Of a stretch of DNA of 64,000 bases, positions 8,597-46,986 are shown one piece after another; the first letter of the stretch is position 1, and each line of letters begins with the position of its first letter. The position numbers were made by a program, and so were the translations under genes. The notes below the pieces were generated by a model that saw nothing but the letters and a program-made list of their open reading frames with translations, did no database searches and had not been told where the DNA came from. The stretch is from Bacteroidetes bacterium UBA7692 (GTDB taxonomy: Bacteria > Bacteroidota > Bacteroidia > Chitinophagales > LD1). The stretch spans positions 856 through 64,855 of the forward strand of contig DLGO01000001.1 of assembly GCA_002482725.1 (NCBI GenBank). The letters are read 5' to 3'.

Positions 8597-9672
8597 AACA
8601 ACTCCAATTTTAGTGATGCAATTCTCTCAGTTAAAAGTAGGTTTTGTTTAGGTTCCGGAGAAAAGCCTTTAGCTGAATGCGCTTTCTTCAGGTCTTCCTT
8701 CAGGTTTAGGTTTTGCTGCGATACGGTATGCGCGATTTTCTTTTCTGAAAGGCTTTTTGCGAGATACTGTTGCTCTGTTTGCCCGGGGGTGGGAATCAAG
8801 ATGGCTTTACCTCCTACAGTATGCAGGTCCATGATAGTACTGTATCCGCTGCGGGCAACGACCACGCTGCTTTGCAACATGAGTTCGTTCAATGCTGCGG
8901 CATCCATATAATCCGCTTCCTCTACAAGCTCATTCAGGTTTTTGATAGTGGTACTAGTGGGAATGCCCCTAATGATGATGGCGCGTTTGTTTAGTTGAAG
9001 TAGTTGCTCCCTGATTATGTTTTCCAGGATTGTGCGCTGAGGCTCCGGGCCGGATAGAATTGCTGCCACATCGTACTTCTTTTCAGCAGCGCCTCTTTTC
9101 ATACGCGAAAGTATGCCTATGAAATCAACGTTTAAGCCTGTGTCATGTGACAGTTCTCCCGACAGGTTGTTTTTGCCTTCTATGTCCGGAACCCAGCAAG
9201 AGTCGAAATTGGCTATCCGGGATTTGTTGAATGTAAATACTAGCTGTTGGAGCAAGCCAAAACCATCCGGCATCAATATGTTCAATTGATGCGTGATGAA
9301 GATGCTCTTCACCTTGGCAGAATAGCAGCCGTAGCGGTTGTCGGATATTATGGCAGCAGCGCTGTGTTTTTTGACCAGCTTTTGAATTGTGCTATGCTCT
9401 GCTTTAATAGCCCGGATAAATTTAGGTAGCTGAAGCGCCATCTTGAGCATAATGCGATCGCCATTAGCATAAGTAGCGTTGTATCCCGGTAAGGTTTCGA
9501 AAGGAAGTTCGCTGAAAGATCCTCTCAAAACGGCAAGTGCATGGCCATCGCTGCACAGCACCACATTGAAATTTTGTGCAAGTAGTTCGTATATAATCGG
9601 AATACATCGGGTGGCATGCCCTATACCCCAATTCAAAACACATACTAAAACAGTTGGTTGCTTGGATTGCAA
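8593..9672 (-). CDS. glycosyltransferase (MurG/GT28-like C-terminal domain family)
   Basis: 359 aa. The N-terminus (LNWGIGHATRCIPI) and C-terminal half (ARSGYSTIMDL...GKAILIPTPGQTEQ) resemble GT-B UDP-sugar transferases. Confidence 0.7.
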   Translation of the reverse strand: MQSKQPTVLVCVLNWGIGHATRCIPIIYELLAQNFNVVLCSDGHALAVLRGSFSELPFETLPGYNATYANGDRIMLKMALQLPKFIRAIKAEHSTIQKLVKKHSAAAIISDNRYGCYSAKVKSIFITHQLNILMPDGFGLLQQLVFTFNKSRIANFDSCWVPDIEGKNNLSGELSHDTGLNVDFIGILSRMKRGAAEKKYDVAAILSGPEPQRTILENIIREQLLQLNKRAIIIRGIPTSTTIKNLNELVEEADYMDAAALNELMLQSSVVVARSGYSTIMDLHTVGGKAILIPTPGQTEQQYLAKSLSEKKIAHTVSQQNLNLKEDLKKAHSAKGFSPEPKQNLLLTERIASLKLELL

Positions 9673-9726
9673 ATTCTATCTTCGTTTAGTGCAACTTACA
9701 CTATAAAACTGCGTTGTACAAATGGC

Positions 9727-9855
9727 ATGAAAAAATCTGCACAATATCTGTTCGTCTTATTGCTAGTGAGCTCGTTTAGCGCTGCTTTTTTGAGTGGCTG
9801 TAAGTCCAGCAAGTGCGACTGCCCGCATGGAACTTTTAATGGCAGGAGACATTAA
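9727..9855 (+). CDS. small Cys/His-rich lipoprotein (42 aa)
   Basis: An internal ATG of the listed 9658..9855 ORF gives MKKSAQYLFVLLLVSSFSAAFLSGC|KSSKCDCPHGTFNGRRH. This is a classic signal peptide plus lipobox (LSGC). It ends 33 nt upstream of ferritin. Confidence 0.5.
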   Translation: MKKSAQYLFVLLLVSSFSAAFLSGCKSSKCDCPHGTFNGRRH

Positions 9856-9888
9856 TTTATTCTTATATAAAAACTAAAAAACAAGAAA

Positions 9889-10422
9889 ATGCTTATACCT
9901 AAGAAAGTTGAAAAGGCACTAAATGAACACCTTGCACTGGAAATGGGAGCTATTTACCATTATCTGGCAGTGGCATCATGGTGCGATAAAGAACGTTATG
10001 AAGGAGCTTCAGCCTTCTTCCATAAGCAATCGGCCGAAGAGCAGTTACACTTTATGAAGTTCTTCAACTATATAAATGAAATGGGAGGCCATGCATTGGT
10101 TCCGGAGTTGAAGAAGCCTTTATCGGTATATAAGAGTATAGTAGAGGTATGTGAGAAATCCCTTGAGGCAGAGAAAAAGGTTACCAAGTCGGTATATAAC
10201 CTTGTAGAAGTAGCGCGAAGTGAGCACGACCACGGAACAGTTGAATTCCTGAAATTCTTTATTGATGAACAGCGTGAGGAGGAGGTGCAATTCACCAAGT
10301 TGCTGGATAAAATAAAACTGATAGGGGATGGTCCTCAGTCGTTGTACTACATAGACAAGGAGATAGAGAAACTAACTGCTAAGGCAGGTAAGAAAGACAA
10401 GAAAGCTGCGGCCGGTGAATAG
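9889..10422 (+). CDS. non-heme ferritin
   Basis: 177 aa. Ferritin-like di-iron ligand pattern (E...Y..., EEQLHFMKFFNYI, SEHDHGTVEFL, DEQREE) with a Lys-rich tail. Confidence 0.85.
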   Translation: MLIPKKVEKALNEHLALEMGAIYHYLAVASWCDKERYEGASAFFHKQSAEEQLHFMKFFNYINEMGGHALVPELKKPLSVYKSIVEVCEKSLEAEKKVTKSVYNLVEVARSEHDHGTVEFLKFFIDEQREEEVQFTKLLDKIKLIGDGPQSLYYIDKEIEKLTAKAGKKDKKAAAGE

Positions 10423-16069: not shown

Positions 16070-17626
16070 TTATTTCTTGCTCAGTTTTACTACCGGCACT
16101 ATCATCTCTTCCAGCGATATACCTCCATGTTGAAAGGTATTCCTGAAAAAGCTTACAAAGTGATTGTAGTTGTTCGGGTATATCAGGAATTTATCTTCCT
16201 TGGCAAATATGTAAGAAGAGGTCAATGAAGTCTTAGGCAGCATGATCTCTTCAGGATTTTTTACCGCATACACATCCTTCTCCTCAAAGTTCAGGTTCCT
16301 GCCTGTTTTGTAGCGGATGTTGCTGGTAGTTTGCCTGTCACCTATGCACTTGCTCGGGTCTTGTACGCGCACGGTGCCGTGGTCGGTCGTTATCAGCAGG
16401 TTAATATCTTTTTCTGCCAGTTTTTTCAGTGCGTTGTGCAGCGGGGAGTGCTCAAACCAGCTGGCTGCTATGGAGCGGTATGCCGCTTCGTCGCTTGCCA
16501 GTTCTTTCAGCACCTCCATTTCTGTGCGGGCGTGGCTCAGCATATCTACAAAGTTGTAGACTATGGCTGTTAGCTTATTGTTCAGGCTGTTCAGTATGTT
16601 GTTTTCCAGGGCCTCCGCATCGCGGTGGTTGGTTATTTTTATGTATTGGTGCTTTATGCTGTCGCGGAAGTTCCTGCCCAGTAGGTCGGTAAGAAATTCG
16701 CCCTCGTGCATGTTCTTCCCTTCCTCATCATCATCATATATCCATTTGTCGTTGAATTTCTTTTGGATCTCCAATGGCATCATACCGGCAAATATGGCAT
16801 TGCGCGAGTATTGGGTTACCGTCGGCAAAATGGCATAAAAAGTTTCCTCCTCGTCTATCCTGAAAAGGTTGGACACCATGCCTTGAATCGCTTTCCACTG
16901 GTCGTAGCGTAGGTTATCTATCAATAGCAAAACTGTCGGCTTGTCCTGTTTCAGCAGGTCAAACAACTTTGTTTTCAATAGTGTATGGCTCATAACCGGA
17001 GCATCAGGTCCCGGCTCTTTTTTCAACCAGTCTTTGTAGTTCTTTATGATGAACTTGTTAAACTCCCTGTTGGCTTCCTGCTTTTGGGCATCAAACACGG
17101 TTTTCATCTGCTCCGCATTAGATGCGTCCAGTTCCATCTCCCAGTATACCAGCTTTTTGTACAGCTCTGCCCAGTCTTTGTAGTCCAGCCTGTCCTGCAT
17201 GCGCATAAATAGGCTCTGGAACTCTTTCTGGTAGTTCGACGATGTTTTTTCTGTTACCAGCCTGTCATTGTCTATTATCTTTTTCAGGGTAGATAGCAGC
17301 TGCTGAGGCTTTACCGGTTTTATCAGGTAGTCCGATATCTGTGAGCCTATGGCATCTTCCATCAGGTTCTCCTCCTCGTTCTTAGTTATCATTACGCAAG
17401 GCAGACGGCTGTTCTTCTCCTTTATGCGCATCAGCGTTTCCAGTCCGGTCAGCCCGGGCATGCTTTCGTCCAGGAACACCACATCTATTTGTTCGGTATC
17501 TACCTTGTCTATGGCATCCTTACCATTGGTTACAGGTATTACGTTGTAGCCTTTGTCTTTCAGGTATAGTATCAGTGGCTTCAAAAGATCTATCTCATCA
17601 TCTGCCCATAGGATATTTATGCTCAT
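16070..17626 (-). CDS. porX: PorX-type response regulator (receiver domain fused to a PglZ/alkaline-phosphatase-superfamily domain)
   Basis: 518 aa. The N-terminal CheY-like receiver has ILWADDE, phospho-acceptor VVFLDESMPG and LIKP. The rest is PglZ-like (IDNLRYDQW, PTVTQYSRNAIFAG, NFVDMLSH, TTDHG). This architecture is characteristic of Bacteroidota PorX. Confidence 0.8.
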   Translation of the reverse strand: MSINILWADDEIDLLKPLILYLKDKGYNVIPVTNGKDAIDKVDTEQIDVVFLDESMPGLTGLETLMRIKEKNSRLPCVMITKNEEENLMEDAIGSQISDYLIKPVKPQQLLSTLKKIIDNDRLVTEKTSSNYQKEFQSLFMRMQDRLDYKDWAELYKKLVYWEMELDASNAEQMKTVFDAQKQEANREFNKFIIKNYKDWLKKEPGPDAPVMSHTLLKTKLFDLLKQDKPTVLLLIDNLRYDQWKAIQGMVSNLFRIDEEETFYAILPTVTQYSRNAIFAGMMPLEIQKKFNDKWIYDDDEEGKNMHEGEFLTDLLGRNFRDSIKHQYIKITNHRDAEALENNILNSLNNKLTAIVYNFVDMLSHARTEMEVLKELASDEAAYRSIAASWFEHSPLHNALKKLAEKDINLLITTDHGTVRVQDPSKCIGDRQTTSNIRYKTGRNLNFEEKDVYAVKNPEEIMLPKTSLTSSYIFAKEDKFLIYPNNYNHFVSFFRNTFQHGGISLEEMIVPVVKLSKK

Positions 17627-17765: not shown

Positions 17766-18893
17766 TTAACCTATTGCCTCATCCAGGTTTGGCATGCCAA
17801 ACCTGTTCAGTGTGTTTATATGCGAGCGCACCGCCTGTAAAAAGGTTTTGTTCTCCATATACGGCACTCCGTATTCCGCTGCCGTTGCCTTTACTATTTC
17901 CGATATGGCAGGGTAGTGTACGTGGCATATTTTAGGGAACAGGTGATGCTCTACCTGATAGTTAAGCCCGCCTACATACCAGGTTACAAACTGATCGTCT
18001 TTAGAGAAGTTGACCGTTGTATTCATTTGGTGCACCGCCCAGCTGTTTTCTATATTGCCCGAAACAGGGCATGGCAGCGGGTGCGTGGTGCCTTCTACAG
18101 TGTGCGCCAATTGAAATACTATCGTCAGTACAAATCCGGCAATCATGTGCATGAGCATAAACCCGGCCAGCAAATGCCAGAAAGGCACTCCGAAAACCAG
18201 CGTAGGTATTGCCAGCATGGCTATTACATATACTACTTTGCTTACTACTATTTTCAGCAGTATTATCCTGCTTTTCTTTTCAGATTCTTTATTTACCCCA
18301 TTGGCAGTGTATCGTGCAAACTGGAAGAAGTCCTTTGCCAGCACCCAATAGATGGTCAGCAGGCTGTAGAGAAAAAAGGCATAGTAGCTTTGGTACCTGT
18401 GCACCGGCTTTACTTCGTTGTGCGGCGACATCCTGAGTGCCAGTTTGTCTGCTATATCCTCGTCCATGCCCACTACATTGGTATATGTATGGTGCAGCAG
18501 GTTGTGCTGTAGCTTCCAGTTAAATACCGATCCGCCCACCAGGTTCAGGGTGTGGCCCATCCAGTAGTTTACACTTTGGCTGGTAGAGTATGCTCCGTGG
18601 TTGGCATCATGCATTATGCTCATGCCTATTCCTGCCAGGCAAAAGCCCATGATGCTCCAAAGAGCAAGGCTTATGGGTAATGAGGGCTTGAAAATAAGGA
18701 TAAGGATAAAGGGAATAAGGTAGCCTGATAGCAACACTATTGTTTTTGCAATCATAGTGCTGTTCGCATGTCGCGAAATGCCATTTGCGGTAAAATATTC
18801 GTTTACCCTTTCTTTCAGTGTGTCGAAAAATAAAGTCTGACCCTTATTTACGAAACGGATTTGTTTTTTTACTTCCATTAATAAGTCGCGCAT
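17766..18893 (-). CDS. membrane fatty-acid (acyl-lipid/acyl-CoA) desaturase
   Basis: 375 aa. Three His boxes (HDANH, HNLLHH, QVEHHLFP) and multiple TM segments. The start could instead be the Met at 18878. Confidence 0.85.
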   Translation of the reverse strand: MRDLLMEVKKQIRFVNKGQTLFFDTLKERVNEYFTANGISRHANSTMIAKTIVLLSGYLIPFILILIFKPSLPISLALWSIMGFCLAGIGMSIMHDANHGAYSTSQSVNYWMGHTLNLVGGSVFNWKLQHNLLHHTYTNVVGMDEDIADKLALRMSPHNEVKPVHRYQSYYAFFLYSLLTIYWVLAKDFFQFARYTANGVNKESEKKSRIILLKIVVSKVVYVIAMLAIPTLVFGVPFWHLLAGFMLMHMIAGFVLTIVFQLAHTVEGTTHPLPCPVSGNIENSWAVHQMNTTVNFSKDDQFVTWYVGGLNYQVEHHLFPKICHVHYPAISEIVKATAAEYGVPYMENKTFLQAVRSHINTLNRFGMPNLDEAIG

Positions 18894-18993
18894 TTCGGTT
18901 GGCGCGTGCTCTAAACGTGAATATAGCTATTATAATATGCGTTCTGATCAAAATGTCGATTCTATGCTCATTTATTAACCTTTGCTTTATATC

Positions 18994-19760
18994 GCTGAGG
19001 GTAAAAATTGATGGTGTTTTCTGATGGTAGCTTTATGGGTGTGCTGGGGGTAAATTGATGGTGTTAAATGAGGGTATTTCTTGAGGGTAAATGATGGGGT
19101 GATTTTGGTTTGTGCTGAGGGTATTTTTATTGTTCATTTATTGCTTCCAGGTGTATCTGTTTAGGGCAGCTTTTGTCTTTAGAAAATTACTTTTTTTTGT
19201 CCGTTTTTTATCCCGGTAATATTCTTCTTAATAAATTGATTATCAGTATATCACTATGCTTTTTGGTCTTTTAGAAGATTATGCATTTTGGGTGATTTCT
19301 GTTTATCTCCAAATGCTTTTTTTGTCCGCTTGTCAAAGAAGGTGTCGCTGAGGGGGTAAAATTGACTTGGAGAGATGTTTTCTGAGGGTTTGTTTATTGT
19401 CCATTTATTGATTTCTGGCTTACCTGTTTAGTGCAACTTTTGTCTTTAGTCATTTACTTTTTTTTGTCCAATTTTTGTCCCGTTAATGCTCTTGTAAAAT
19501 AATTGATTATCAGTATATTAATATGCTTTATTGTCTTTTAGAAGAATACACATTTTGGGTGATTTCTGTTTACTTGCCAATGCCTTTTTTTGTCCGCTTA
19601 TCAAAGAGGGTAACGCTGAGGGTAAAATTTGACTTGTAGAGCTTGTTTTCTGAGGGTGTTTTTTAAGTGTGGCATTGAGGGTCTTTTATGTCTGTAAATA
19701 ATAGTTTTGCTGAGGGTAAAATAGCATGCTGCAAAGAGGGGAAACCTGAGGGTAAAATCA
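18994..19760 (+). repeat. same-orientation array of TGAGGGT(A/T-rich) words in a coding-free island
   Basis: Ten exact TGAGGGT copies start at 18996, 19069, 19082, 19116, 19383, 19617, 19651, 19676, 19711 and 19747. Variants are TGAGGGGGT (19349), TGGGGGT (19045) and TGATGGT (19009, 19022, 19057). All are on the + strand. Confidence 0.85.
19115..19649 (+). repeat. tandem direct duplication, two units of about 267 bp
   Basis: Unit 1 (19115-19381) and unit 2 (19382-19649) align end to end. Both run CTGAGGGT..TTTATTGT.CATTTATTG...CTGTTTAG...CTTTTGTCTTTAG...TTTTTTTTGTCC...AATTGATTATCAGTATAT...TTTTGGGTGATTTCTGTTTA...TTTTTTTGTCCGCTT.TCAAAGA.GGT..CGCTGAGGG. By eye roughly four fifths of positions are identical. 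Confidence 0.9.
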
Positions 19761-20073
19761 TGCTTTTTATTATACGCTAAATACACTTTCATTCCTCAAT
19801 TTTTGATTTTTATCAAAATCGTCACAGTCTTTTATCCTGCCTGTTTTATGTAAAGAACGATTTAGGCAGCCTTGTATATTTTAGAATCAAAAAACCTGCC
19901 AAAGTATACTTCCTACATTGCAAAATTTGAAGAACTGACAGATTGCCATATGCGTGGGTAACAGGTTTTTACAAAACGCAAAATCTTTGCACTTTCCTTA
20001 AGATATGGTAAGAAGATCTGTCAGTAACGTTAAAAGTTTTTTTATTTCCATGATAAATTTCAACTTACAGCGC

Positions 20074-20580
20074 ATGAAACAACAGATACTCCTTCTTTTT
20101 ATTCTTCCGGCATTAATGTTCATCAGTGGTTGCGATAGGAAATCCTGCGACGACGCCCAGTGCAATTACCGTCAGCAATGTATCAGTGGCCAGTGCTACT
20201 GCAACAATGGATATGAAGGTAGTGCCTGCGAAACCGAGGCATACAAGAAATATGTCCGATCTTATCTCGTTTACGAAAACTGTGCACAGTCCACGCCAAC
20301 AGTAGGCCAGTATTCCTCTACTATATACAACGACCCTTCGTATATCAATAAAATTGTGATTACTAACTTTTTAGGGCAGGGGTTTTCTGTTGATGCTTAC
20401 ATCACTACCGATGGAAACAATAAAGGAAATGCAATTGCAATACAAAACCAGAACTTAGGTGGTTTCATAGTAGAAGGATACGGCACATTTGATGAGTACA
20501 ACAAACGCCTTACCATGAATGTAAACTACACCTACAACTTCGAAAGCAAAAGCTGCACGCACACATTCTATCCAAACTAA
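20074..20580 (+). CDS. lipoprotein with an EGF-like Cys-rich module
   Basis: An internal ATG of the listed 20005..20580 ORF gives MKQQILLLFILPALMFISGC (signal peptide plus lipobox). It is followed by CDDAQCNYRQQCISGQCYCNNGYEGSAC, which fits the EGF pattern C-x-C-x5-G-x2-C. Confidence 0.7.
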   Translation: MKQQILLLFILPALMFISGCDRKSCDDAQCNYRQQCISGQCYCNNGYEGSACETEAYKKYVRSYLVYENCAQSTPTVGQYSSTIYNDPSYINKIVITNFLGQGFSVDAYITTDGNNKGNAIAIQNQNLGGFIVEGYGTFDEYNKRLTMNVNYTYNFESKSCTHTFYPN

Positions 20581-20606: not shown

Positions 20607-20894
20607 CTAGTCCAGGTTTACGTCTATTACACTTTCTACAGGGATAAATACGCCCCCTTTCAGTATTACGTAGCGCTCGGTATATGCCCATACCGTTGTT
20701 TCTACTTGGCGCTGGCCTTCGGTAGTGGCAAAAAATATCTTCACTTTATTATGATACCCATTGCCCAACAGCATAGCGCGGTACAATTTCTTGTCATTGT
20801 TTTTTCGTTGGTCTATGGTTAGGTTATTGCGCTCACTTGCGAAAGAACACGCAGGGATTAACTCTTTGTCTATGCTTAGTGCTGACATTATCAT
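20607..20894 (-). CDS. hypothetical protein
   Basis: 95-aa ORF with protein-like composition, convergent with the lipoprotein gene. I recognise no family. Confidence 0.5.
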   Translation of the reverse strand: MIMSALSIDKELIPACSFASERNNLTIDQRKNNDKKLYRAMLLGNGYHNKVKIFFATTEGQRQVETTVWAYTERYVILKGGVFIPVESVIDVNLD

Positions 20895-23508: not shown

Positions 23509-23946
23509 GTGAATAATCAAAATCCTCAGGAACATGCCGGTGAAATGTTCCACGATAGTGCTCTTAGGAAGACTACTCCCTTTCAGCACTTTTCAGTAGC
23601 GCTCATAGCAGGTGTTTTGGGCATGCTTGTAGCTAAGTATTACTTCCGCTCAAATGATGGGGTGGGTTTTATGGGCTGCTTCGGGCTTATGTTTTATGCA
23701 TTGTTCAATCCCTGGTTGTTTATGCTGGCCGCCAATTCATTAAAGTATTTCCTCACTTCACTGTCGTTGTATGTTTTGCTTACACTGTTCATGTTTGGGG
23801 CCATCTACTTTTTTACGGGCGAAAGCATCATGAACAAATGGGACCTGCGCATTATCATCATTTCTGCCACTTTCTTTTATTTCGTGGCGTTTGGCATGAT
23901 GCGCCTTTTAAAACTTATTTTGGATACAGACGACGACAAACTATAG
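23509..23946 (+). CDS. hypothetical membrane protein
   Basis: 145 aa (GTG start as listed; a later Met is possible). It has four predicted hydrophobic helices and lies 9 nt upstream of fur. Confidence 0.55.
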   Translation: MNNQNPQEHAGEMFHDSALRKTTPFQHFSVALIAGVLGMLVAKYYFRSNDGVGFMGCFGLMFYALFNPWLFMLAANSLKYFLTSLSLYVLLTLFMFGAIYFFTGESIMNKWDLRIIIISATFFYFVAFGMMRLLKLILDTDDDKL

Positions 23947-46228: not shown

Positions 46229-46267
46229 CCCTTGTCAGTAGCTTACTTTTTGCAATTCCCAACTGTT

Positions 46268-46548
46268 AAAAAATGGCGGTGGTTGGCGGTGGCTGGCGGA
46301 ATTTGCGTTTTTCAGCATGAATTTCGCTTTTTTGCGGCACTTTCAATGCGCTAAACCTTTTGCCCTCAACACTCTTAGCCAAATTTCTGTCGGTAAAAAC
46401 ACGGACAGTTTTTCGGCTTTCTGTCGGTACCATCACCCAAAAAAGTGGCGGTGGTTGGCGGTGAGTGGCGGAAATTACGTTTTTTCAGCCTTTTTGAAAT
46501 TGTTAAAATCTGCGGTACCAAAATTGCGGTATTTCTGACGGTGTTTTA
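46268..46548 (+). repeat. direct repeats and a TG(N)CGGT word array in a coding-free island
   Basis: A ~45-bp direct repeat AAAAAA(T/G)GGCGGTGGTTGGCGGTG(GC/AG)TGGCGGAA(A)TT(TG/A)CGTTTTTCAGC occurs at 46268-46316 and 46439-46489. CTGTCGGTA occurs at 46387 and 46421, CTGCGGTACCA at 46510, TTGCGGTA at 46524, CTGACGGTG at 46536 and an outlier CAGTCGGTAAAT at 46819. Confidence 0.8.
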
Positions 46549-46986
46549 TTCACACACGCCGTCCTGTATTCCCAAATTTTAATTGTACTCCGGCTGTAAA
46601 AAAATCCGTGTGTTTCAGTGAAATCTGAGTAATCTGTGATCCCATTTCAGACAAAAAAAGAACGCTCCGGGTCATCGATCCACGCGCTAATGTAAATGTC
46701 AAGTGCTATTCGACTTTAGCAAAAAAGGCGGCAAAGTTTTTTGCCTGGTCTAACTACATGATTAGCAGGTGCATGTATGTAAATTAAAAAATGTGAATGC
46801 CTGTCTTTTAATGCTCTTCAGTCGGTAAATATTTTTACCTCTGGCACAAATTAGCCTAACTAATGTATCGCGTTTGGTGTTTTGGTTTTTACGAAATAAA
46901 TACGTGTATTCAATAGGCAATGGGAATTCATAATGTCGAATATTGGTTGCTGAACCTTACAATAACATTTTCATCTTTGCGGCCAA

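Follow-up and report, generated by a model that had tools for sequence, protein, structure and literature searches.

A tandem duplication of 2 × 267 bp lies in the 1.2-kb spacer between a fatty-acid desaturase gene on the minus strand and a small lipoprotein gene on the plus strand; it is real, its copies have diverged, and the duplicated units are very probably non-coding. The reading that we favor, with a probability of roughly 0.6, is that the duplication is a by-product of DNA misalignment in a dispensable spacer core rather than a working part, and that its copies have since drifted neutrally. As it stands, the duplication matters little and is apparently ordinary. Positions refer to the window, that is, the whole 64-kb stretch of DNA that was analysed, and the features discussed below are collected in Table 1.

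Table 1. Features in and around the duplicated spacer segment (window positions)
Feature	Position	Strand	Description
Fatty-acid desaturase gene, 370 aa	17766-18878	-	Left flank, transcribed away from the spacer; Pfam FA_desaturase E = 1.4e-38
Desaturase-proximal spacer part	18879-18990	-	Well aligned with L075 to ~18990, unalignable beyond
Hypervariable spacer core	18991-19880		Unalignable with L075 or L079
Left box array	18994-19114	+	Five CTGAGGGTAAA-like boxes: 18996, 19045, 19069, 19082, 19116; the last is the start of unit A
Unit A	19115-19381	+	267 bp; box R, 233-nt interior X, box GCTGAGGGGGTAAAATTGA with 34-nt tail
Small ORF of unit A, 31 aa MLFGLLEDYAFWVISVYLQMLFLSACQRRCR	19256-19351	+	Probably not a gene
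Unit B	19382-19649	+	268 bp; 82.7% identity to unit A
Small ORF of unit B, 38 aa MLYCLLEEYTFWVISVYLPMPFFVRLSKRVTLRVKFDL	19523-19639	+	Probably not a gene
Partial third copy (third R box, CTGAGGGTGTTTTT)	19650-19665	+	Right limit of R-X-R-X-R; array of Tandem Repeats Finder (TRF) reaches 19665
Right box array	19650-19760	+	Four TGAGGGT boxes: 19651, 19676, 19711, 19747; 25-36 nt apart
Lipoprotein-proximal spacer part	19885-20073	+	Kept in L079 from 19986 on (BLASTN)
Small EGF-like lipoprotein gene, 168 aa from ATG 20074	20074-20580	+	Right flank; signal peptide MKQQILLLFILPALMFISGC; weak Pfam EGF_TEN match

Structure and Boundaries of the Duplication

The two units are colinear tandem copies that are 82.7% identical over the 269 columns of a MAFFT alignment, with 220 identical positions, 46 substitutions, and three single-base gaps, and TRF reports an array at 19115-19665 with a period of 267, 2.1 copies, 83% matches, 2% indels, and a score of 765. 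A sequence-only reading of this DNA had described two units of ~267 bp with about four fifths identity, and both programs confirm that description. The array is laid out as R-X-R-X-R, where R is the 14-nt box CTGAGGGTnTTTTT; the word CTGAGGGT opens both unit A and unit B, and a third CTGAGGGT stands directly after unit B, at 19650. Homology is lost abruptly to the left of 19115, where 4/10 bases match, and to the right of 19649 it extends for ~14 nt only (CTGAGGGTGTTTTT vs CTGAGGGTATTTTT), the third box matching the unit start at 13/14 positions before homology stops.

Both units contain 3-8 stop codons per frame in all six frames, which agrees with the earlier view that they are non-coding. 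That view also counted four TTTTGTC(C/T) blocks in each unit, a count that is right for unit B but not for unit A, which has three and reads TTTTATCC at the site equivalent to the fourth. Internal sub-repeats were not found in the unit, as the best self-alignments are no better than those of shuffled sequences (P = 0.21 and 0.36). The units are separated by a Jukes-Cantor distance of 0.20, and the duplication is indeed not recent, as had been proposed.

Placement of the Substitutions

The sequence-only reading took the preserved blocks to suggest selective constraint on specific sub-segments. The blocks themselves exist, as identical runs of 16, 18, 22, and 16 nt between the units, but constraint on them is not supported, because the substitutions are placed as by chance. 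The longest run, of 22 nt, compares with a simulated mean of 21.4 nt (P = 0.42), with P = 0.32 for the three longest runs summed and P = 0.72 for the index of dispersion; the placement is indistinguishable from random. Of the three outcomes that the sequence-only reading had named as refuting constraint, two are therefore observed, namely randomly placed substitutions and, as described below, no excess of compensatory pairs. At 83% identity, identical runs of 16-22 nt arise by chance, and such runs are therefore no sign of constraint, which is a caution for any reading made from the sequence alone. A point that sits less well with ordinary drift is that transitions and transversions between the units number 18:28, whereas the corresponding ratio in coding comparisons is 1.4-2.1, coding and non-coding spectra not being strictly comparable. 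Neutral evolution of the units is a probable reading of this comparison, which covers two copies in one strain.

The Spacer Core and its Counterparts in Relatives

On the plus strand, positions 18991-19760 consist of 43% T, 23% G, 22% A, and 12% C, and GGG occurs 25 times vs two occurrences of CCC, which is a strong strand asymmetry. The genes around the spacer are housekeeping genes, and their synteny is conserved. Only two contigs, L077 and L078, span the spacer; they match the window at 100% identity over 13.5 kb and represent an identical strain. Two more distant relatives, L075 and L079, were compared, for which the distances at third codon positions are ~0.58 and 0.09-0.17, respectively.

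The first of these, L075, is ~80% identical and shows full synteny, with 87% amino-acid identity for the desaturase. Its spacer is shorter, at 684 bp, lacks the unit, and can be aligned with that of the window at its two edges only. The second, L079, is 95.5% identical to the window from 19986 onward and carries unrelated sequence upstream of 19986 (BLASTN). Neither the complete L075 spacer nor the part of the L079 spacer that is visible, 415 nt, contains the unit sequence. A word, AAAAAnCCTGCCAA, at ~19885 is common to all three spacer sequences (window, L075, and L079) on reading. As one counterpoint to a dispensable core, three relatives each have a G-rich box array of their own in this place. 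In the L075 spacer, TGAGG occurs five times on the same strand vs ~0.3 expected, a number reached in 0/5000 simulations; as a further counterpoint, this enrichment in an otherwise unalignable spacer hints that the box core may have been retained for a reason.

Sequence resembling the spacer core was found neither elsewhere in the window nor in the L075 and L079 cores, plasmids, phages, or JGI metagenome contigs; the plasmid search covered 72,556 records (BLASTN), and phage records were searched likewise (BLASTN). A scan of 185,579 species genomes gave, as the closest loci, those with 65-66% amino-acid identity (Pontibacter and other Bacteroidota), and the box is present at none of them. A two-box pattern matched 26 metagenome contigs, of which 25 carry one unrelated 18-nt minisatellite, CAGACTGAGGGTAAAATG, and the last was matched by chance, in sequence that appears to be coding; matches in the viral scan are also chance matches and mostly resemble repeats in coding sequence. 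A literature search on the box sequence returned nothing relevant.

Replacement of an intergenic region between close strains has been described as "horizontal regulatory transfer" or "regulatory switching" (PMC5890482, PMC9944727). The situation here is similar in that the flanking genes are conserved while the core of the spacer is unrelated between relatives, with sharp breakpoints. The cited work concerns the pangenomes of E. coli, staphylococci, and pneumococci, whereas the present case consists of three alleles known from sequence.

A Possible Origin of the Duplication

In the reading that we favor, the spacer core would be dispensable, quickly turned over, and full of short CTGAGGGTAAAAT boxes on the same strand. 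Two such boxes of ~14 nt, 267 nt apart, may have mispaired, either by replication slippage or in an unequal sister-strand exchange, and this mispairing would have copied one box together with the 253 nt that follow it, generating R-X-R-X-R. The copies would then have diverged by 17% through randomly placed ordinary substitutions and three 1-nt indels. On this basis, the duplication would be about as old as the split from the 95%-identical relatives and much younger than that from the 80%-identical relative. This age estimate agrees with the missing unit in L075.

The promoters of both flanking genes probably lie outside the duplicated segment: positions 18879-18990 presumably hold the desaturase promoter and 5' leader, and positions 19885-20073 presumably hold those of the lipoprotein gene. 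The duplication may have been tolerated because both promoters would be located in these conserved 110-190 nt at the spacer edges.

Duplications at short direct repeats and intergenic minisatellites, including VNTR loci, offer the nearest parallel to such an event, since they are also head-to-tail, intergenic, bounded by a short direct repeat, and devoid of an apparent gene product. The MIRU loci of mycobacteria are an example of a bacterial intergenic VNTR. The copies at VNTR loci are typically near-identical, however, whereas here two old copies have diverged by 17%, and at 267 bp the unit exceeds most minisatellite units in length.

The Boxes as a Possible Binding Platform

The spacer core contains ~12 boxes of the form CTGAGGGTAAAAT, all in one orientation. 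Of the 11 copies of TGAGGGT in the 64-kb window, 10 lie within 18996-19753, all on the plus strand, and only 0.09 are expected in the spacer under a first-order Markov model of the spacer. This density, together with the TGAGG enrichment in the L075 spacer and the presence of formally similar boxes (CTGTCGGTAAAAA and CTGACGGTGTTTT) in a second spacer of the window, at 46229-46986, would fit a cis-regulatory or architectural platform, in which a putative protein binds CTGAGGGTAAAAT through its TGAGG core and controls or insulates the divergent promoters; the duplication would then have added four sites and 534 bp. We regard such a platform as unlikely, though by no means far-fetched. The spacing of the boxes is irregular, at 13-49 nt, without helical phasing, a loose spacing of 23-24 nt being seen at the left end only (TRF 18994-19064, period 23, 2.9 copies, 66% matches). 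No TGAGGGT box occurs in the 415 nt of the L079 spacer that are visible, enrichment of the box upstream of the desaturase gene was not found at 45 more distant Bacteroidota loci, and the TGAGG words of L075, unlike the boxes of the window, are located within small hairpins and in both orientations. The output domain of the neighbouring response regulator is PglZ and not DNA-binding. Furthermore, an array that had grown from one seed by local duplication would be enriched in these words without any function.

A broader version of the same idea is doubtful. In this version, the TGAGG(G)T array would be a multi-site platform for a DNA- or RNA-binding protein, and the core word of the array would be kept across species while the sequence between boxes turns over. 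The different G-rich arrays (TGAGGGT, TGGCGGTGAG, and TGAGGA/CCTCAATTTC) would be cassettes that can replace one another and determine how the desaturase and lipoprotein promoters are regulated or insulated, with the 267-bp duplication as a growth step.

Comparison with Mobile Intergenic Elements

Because spacer cores have clearly been swapped at this site, the region might instead be a piece of a lineage-specific, non-autonomous repeat element with a degenerate minisatellite that was inserted or exchanged into the spacer and then partly duplicated. The L079 spacer contains, at this position, a 240-nt element with TGGCGG boxes, which has a homologue at another locus of the window, 46277-46515 (73% over 245 nt by BLASTN, with E-values of box segments down to 1e-14). 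In addition, Bacteroidota possess species-specific intergenic elements of 84-991 nt with minisatellites, such as BrickBuilt, a minisatellite-containing MITE of Porphyromonas gingivalis (PMC4596501). BrickBuilt resembles the region studied here in belonging to the same phylum, in being strictly intergenic and species-specific, and in combining short direct repeats of ~23 nt with unique flanks to a length of up to ~1 kb. By its description, however, it consists of perfect head-to-tail 23-nt repeats, has a leader and a tail with inverted-repeat ends, and is present in 19 copies per genome, whereas the present region has irregularly spaced boxes, no inverted ends, and one known locus.

An inserted element is improbable in our estimation. 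Terminal inverted repeats were not found at the ends of the core, a second copy is absent from the 64-kb window, and the metagenome and viral scans revealed no bacterial relative; the boxes, moreover, are not arranged head-to-tail. Logan contigs, which are built with k = 31, cross the spacer unbroken in two samples, and this continuity speaks against further near-identical copies in the genome.

Small Open Reading Frames

Each unit contains a small ORF at the same place, which appears by eye to encode a hydrophobic helix followed by a basic C-terminus, and of the two longest identical runs between the units, one directly precedes the ATG and the other falls within the ORF. These features recall type I toxin-antitoxin modules, in which case the units would be tandem small-protein genes for hydrophobic peptides of ~30-38 aa, perhaps with an antisense RNA; the occurrence of tandem short hydrophobic ORFs in one intergenic region is a published criterion for type I toxins (PMC2887945). 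The E. coli ldr/rdl "long direct repeats", ibs/sib, and zorO-orzO/zorP-orzP loci likewise are diverged tandem repeats of a few hundred bp within one intergenic region, with an unannotated short hydrophobic ORF per copy and a spacer far longer than in relatives without the locus (PMC2887945, PMC3919570). At the zor locus, for example, the spacer measures 1.2 kb vs 0.3 kb between strains (PMC2887945).

Nevertheless, we consider a toxin module very unlikely. The ORFs of the two units share 14 of their first 19 residues, after which a 1-nt indel, at ~20 codons, shifts the frame, so that the C-termini differ. The first 19-20 codons show five non-synonymous and four synonymous changes, which is indistinguishable from neutral, and all plus-strand frames of such T-rich DNA yield hydrophobic, basic peptides. 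Neither ORF has a family match or true homologue: Pfam gave nothing, the best NCBIfam E-values were 0.11 and 0.13, and phmmer against 1.84 billion representative proteins returned one match, to a spurious repeat protein. The mRNAs and antitoxins of type I systems are structured, whereas the RNA structure predicted for the units is weak on both strands, and the units lack a promoter motif. In sum, the units differ from the E. coli loci in their frame-shifted ORF and in that no homologues, structured RNA, or promoters were detected.

Search for RNA and Promoter Signals

A long, non-coding, duplicated region with some identical runs might also represent duplicated structured RNA genes or a duplicated cis-regulatory RNA, but this is extremely improbable given the predicted folds. 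The sequence-only reading had proposed folding each unit on both strands, and neither strand of either unit is more stable than its shuffles (z-scores of 0.02 and 1.86 on the plus strand and of 0.30 and 2.46 on the minus strand). The RNAalifold consensus fold is weak, at -26.5 kcal/mol for the plus strand and about -11 to -12 kcal/mol for the minus strand. Compensatory substitutions, the other proposed sign, affect 2/58 pairs on the plus strand and 2/31 pairs on the minus strand, as compared with 2.27 and 1.41 expected when the same substitutions are placed at random, a comparison of two sequences that has low power. No Rfam family matched in the whole window at gathering thresholds, and at E ≤ 10 the region 18800-20150 gave two noise matches, with 20.3 and 18.2 bits where the gathering scores are 40 and 60. 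Neither unit contains the Bacteroidetes -7 motif TAnnTTTG, and the right flank has one, at 19702; sigma-70-like matches are about as frequent as in shuffled sequence, and no terminator-like site was found in the search. Absence of the unit sequence from L075 and from the visible L079 spacer speaks against an RNA gene as well.

Three further candidates were rejected. A diversity-generating retroelement pair does not fit, as of the 46 substituted columns only 12 show A in unit A and only 14 in unit B, and no reverse transcriptase is encoded among the neighbouring genes. Runs of GGG are 8-21 nt apart and, by eye, form no canonical four-run G-quadruplex motif. A candidate Fur box, TGATTATCA, is present in both units and agrees with the consensus for E. 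coli Fur at 13-14/19 positions, but 33 sites in the window score equally and the lead was therefore dropped.

Test for a Replication Origin

We give next to no credence to the spacer being a replication origin, whether chromosomal oriC or iteron-type, with the boxes as initiator-binding sites: a long AT-rich spacer between divergent genes with ~12 direct repeats, a period of 23-24 nt at its left end, and a word, TGAGGGTAA, that on reading differs at two positions from the DnaA box TTATCCACA in reverse complement would be in keeping with it, but the spacer has no DnaA box with ≤1 mismatch (the window has seven, all elsewhere, vs ~17 expected), no dnaA, dnaN, or rep gene was found nearby, and the box array is unlike those in L075 and L079, whereas an origin should be conserved. 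Both mismatches of TGAGGGTAA fall at positions that we take to be important for binding of E. coli DnaA. The GC skew shows no step at 19 kb and follows gene orientation over the 64 kb surveyed, a length too small for a firm conclusion on skew, and regular iterons are not seen in the spacer beyond ~3 loosely periodic copies (period 23, 66% matches).

Implications

The locus provides a clean example of how short direct repeats may seed a larger tandem duplication in a bacterial spacer, and of spacer cores being replaced quickly while the flanking genes remain 95% identical. Its importance would be greater if arrays of boxes on one strand did prove to serve as platforms for binding or as regulatory cassettes that can be exchanged. 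For Bacteroidota other than the gut genera, little has been charted of non-coding repeat families and of promoter architecture.

Neighbouring Genes

Finally, some observations on the neighbouring genes may be added. A Fur-family gene is located 4 kb from the duplication, and the response regulator with the PglZ output domain is also a neighbour. Public assemblies record the desaturase product as 370 aa, with its start at 18878, and for the lipoprotein gene the public records carry both 168-aa and 176-aa forms.

STRUCTURE OF THE DUPLICATION

The spacer between the desaturase and lipoprotein genes holds a 267/268-bp unit in two head-to-tail copies, unit A (19115-19381) and unit B (19382-19649). 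That these form a diverged tandem duplication, as a sequence-only reading had proposed, was confirmed by Tandem Repeats Finder (19115-19665, period 267, 2.1 copies, 83% matches, 2% indels, score 765) and by a MAFFT alignment, in which 220 of 269 columns are identical, 46 are substitutions and 3 are single-base gaps (82.7% identity). No significant sub-repeat was found within the unit. The copies become homologous precisely at the 19115 box (only 4 of the 10 nt before it match) and cease to be so after a third partial copy of ~14 nt behind unit B (CTGAGGGTGTTTTT vs. CTGAGGGTATTTTT); the layout is therefore R-X-R-X-R, where R is a 14-nt box and X the interior between boxes.

The longer form of the box is (G)CTGAGGGTAAAAT(TGA). 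Ten of the 11 TGAGGGT words of the 64-kb window lie within 18996-19753, always on the + strand; a first-order Markov model built on the spacer predicts 0.09. Five boxes stand to the left of the duplication, two in each unit, and four more to the right, at spacings of 13-49 nt except across the unit interiors. The spacer core (18991-19760) is strongly strand-asymmetric (T 43%, G 23%, A 22%, C 12%; 25 GGG vs. 2 CCC).

Coordinates of the spacer, its flanking genes, and the small ORFs of the units
Feature	Coordinates	Strand	Remarks
Spacer	18879-20073		1.2 kb; separates two divergently transcribed genes; holds the repeat
Fatty-acid desaturase gene	17766-18878	-	
Small EGF-like lipoprotein gene	20074-20580	+	
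Small ORF, unit A	19256-19351	+	31 aa
Small ORF, unit B	19523-19639	+	38 aa; same position as the unit A ORF

SEQUENCE CONSTRAINT AND RNA STRUCTURE

The blocks said to be preserved between the units do exist, as identical runs of 16, 18, 22, and 16 nt, but the selective constraint proposed for them is unsupported. With mismatch positions permuted, the longest run (22 nt) compares with a mean of 21.4 (P = 0.42), and neither the sum of the top three runs (P = 0.32) nor the index of dispersion of mismatches (P = 0.72) departs from chance, which is what the placement of substitutions follows. When both units were folded as RNA, the z-scores were 0.02 and 1.86 for the + strand and 0.30 and 2.46 for the - strand; shuffled sequences are thus at least as stable, and sometimes more so. 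RNAalifold consensus folds were weak (-26.5 kcal/mol on the + strand, -11.7 on the - strand), with doubly changed pairs numbering 2 of 58 and 2 of 31, respectively. Random placement of substitutions of the same number and spectrum, simulated 300 times per strand, gave on average 2.27 (+) and 1.41 (-) such pairs at the same energies, which puts the observed counts at the chance level. At gathering thresholds Rfam matches nothing in the window, and relaxing to E <= 10 brings up just two noise hits in the spacer.

TURNOVER OF THE SPACER AND AGE OF THE DUPLICATION

Across 13.5 kb that takes in the spacer, two Logan contigs (L077, L078) match the window at 100% identity and represent the same strain. 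The source organism belongs to the Bacteroidota, and the nearest named genomes (Pontibacter) show only ~65% amino-acid identity in the desaturase. L079, a contig of a close relative, matches the window at 95.5% identity from 19986 across the lipoprotein gene and further right, and its 415 nt upstream of the point matching 19986 are unrelated to the window spacer. This breakpoint (L079 416/window 19986) is sharp, with 95.5% identity rightwards and none leftwards, and therefore the whole spacer core has been replaced between conserved flanking genes. Exactly where the window has its TGAGGGT array, L079 has an element of 240 nt (1-240) that bears GGCGGTGAGTGGCGG boxes and whose homologue in the window lies at a different locus (46277-46515; 73% over 245 nt, box segments with E down to 1e-14). 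Since the L079 core is unrelated and its element resides elsewhere in the window, close relatives have swapped spacer cores, and at least one element with boxes sits at different loci in the two. The element common to L079 1-240 and window 46270-46515 looks like a dispersed and possibly mobile intergenic element. The window copy, in a second long spacer (46229-46986), contains two direct copies of (TGGCGGTGnn)x3-GGAAATTnCGTTTTTTCAGC ~172 nt apart, and additionally CTGTCGGTAAAAA-type boxes.

A more distant relative (contig L075; ~80-84% nucleotide identity to the window, 87% amino-acid identity in the desaturase) is fully syntenic. Its spacer of only 684 bp lacks the 267-bp unit and can be aligned with that of the window only over ~110 nt beside the desaturase gene and ~70-165 nt beside the lipoprotein gene.

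Units A and B are separated by a Jukes-Cantor distance of 0.20, and third-codon-position distances to the window are 0.09-0.17 for L079 and ~0.58 for L075. If the units drift at a roughly synonymous rate, the duplication would date from about the time of the split from the 95%-identical relatives, in support of the claim that it is not recent, and much younger than the L075 split, which fits the absence of the unit from L075. Overall, the earlier interpretation is supported as regards a duplicated, old, and non-coding sequence, and unsupported as regards constraint.

ORIGIN OF THE DUPLICATION

Slippage or unequal exchange between two short direct repeats already present 267 nt apart would give rise to R-X-R-X-R. 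This layout is the expected footprint of such events, the mechanism being drawn from established knowledge of duplication formation. We consider a neutral, slippage-born duplication in a dispensable, rapidly replaced spacer core, with promoters at the conserved edges, to be the best reading, at a probability of roughly 0.6. The closest known counterparts include tandem duplications mediated by short repeats, minisatellites of intergenic regions, intergenic-region switching between strains (PMC5890482, PMC9944727), and the minisatellite MITE BrickBuilt of P. gingivalis (PMC4596501).

Alternatively, the box arrays may constitute a binding platform or an exchangeable cassette, to which we assign a modest probability. 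The same site bears three different G-rich box arrays in three relatives. The L075 spacer (9317-10000), although otherwise unalignable with the window, holds five TGAGG on the strand equivalent to window +, several in small hairpins (e.g., TTGAGGcgacccggccCCTCAA), where ~0.3 would be expected and 0 of 5,000 simulations reached five. In addition, the transition:transversion ratio between the units (18:28) is below that of coding comparisons with relatives (1.4-2.1; 6.25 in one short comparison). An array grown by repeated local duplication of one seed would also account for the word enrichment. In the L075 spacer TGAGG occurs in both orientations, as does a GAAATTGAGG/CCTCAATTTC word.

In 45 more distant Bacteroidota loci, the region upstream of the desaturase gene shows no enrichment of TGAGG, and none of the loci has the box. 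Similar sequence is absent from 72,556 plasmid records, 50,697 phage records, and the rest of the window, and a viral scan returned chance matches, mainly in apparent coding repeats. A metagenome scan for the two-box pattern yielded 26 JGI contigs (L082-L107), one being a chance match in apparently coding sequence and the other 25 members of a single unrelated minisatellite family with an 18-nt unit, which has the 13-mer CTGAGGGTAAAAT in common with the window by chance. In this family, CAGACTGAGGGTAAAATG alternates with CAGACCAGGGGTAAAATG-type units (contigs Ga0126343_, Ga0126338_, Ga0100405_, etc.); it occupies many loci on contigs of ~40% GC and is probably a repeat family of a eukaryotic host genome in those samples.

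CODING POTENTIAL AND OTHER READINGS

Each unit has 3-8 stop codons in each of the six frames, bearing out the stops reported in all frames. The small ORFs are identical at 14 of their first 19 residues and share a hydrophobic stretch, and a published search for type I toxin loci uses short hydrophobic ORFs repeated within a single spacer as a criterion (PMC2887945). The arrangement recalls the tandemly duplicated type I toxin loci of E. coli, but the likeness is in outward form only, and tandem small-protein genes seem improbable: a 1-nt indel alters the frame after ~20 codons, nucleotide changes in the early codons are non-synonymous in 5 cases and synonymous in 4 (manual count, MAFFT alignment), hydrophobic, basic peptides come out of every frame of this T-rich strand, the ORFs have no meaningful Pfam or NCBIfam match, and phmmer against 1.84 billion representative proteins returned only a spurious repeat protein.

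A DGR repeat pair was ruled out because substitutions between the units are not adenine-specific. A replication origin is very unlikely, as the spacer has no DnaA box at <=1 mismatch; GC skew, over 64 kb, shows no step there. The Fur-box-like word in each unit scores at best as well as 33 other window sites. Motif searches found no Bacteroidetes -7 motif (TAnnTTTG) inside the units and no terminator-like site.

Farther out lie genes for a receiver/PglZ response regulator, MurB, and LpxK on the desaturase side, and for a Cys/Met PLP enzyme, an acyl-CoA dehydrogenase, and a Fur-family regulator on the lipoprotein side. The response regulator gene (16070-17626, -) adjoins the desaturase gene, an adjacency kept in L075, and its combination of receiver and PglZ domains is that of PorX, a regulator of type IX secretion. 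Two conserved ORFs without Pfam matches, 20607-20894 (-, 93 aa) and 23509-23946 (+, 145 aa), have ORF calls at matching positions in the relatives' contigs.
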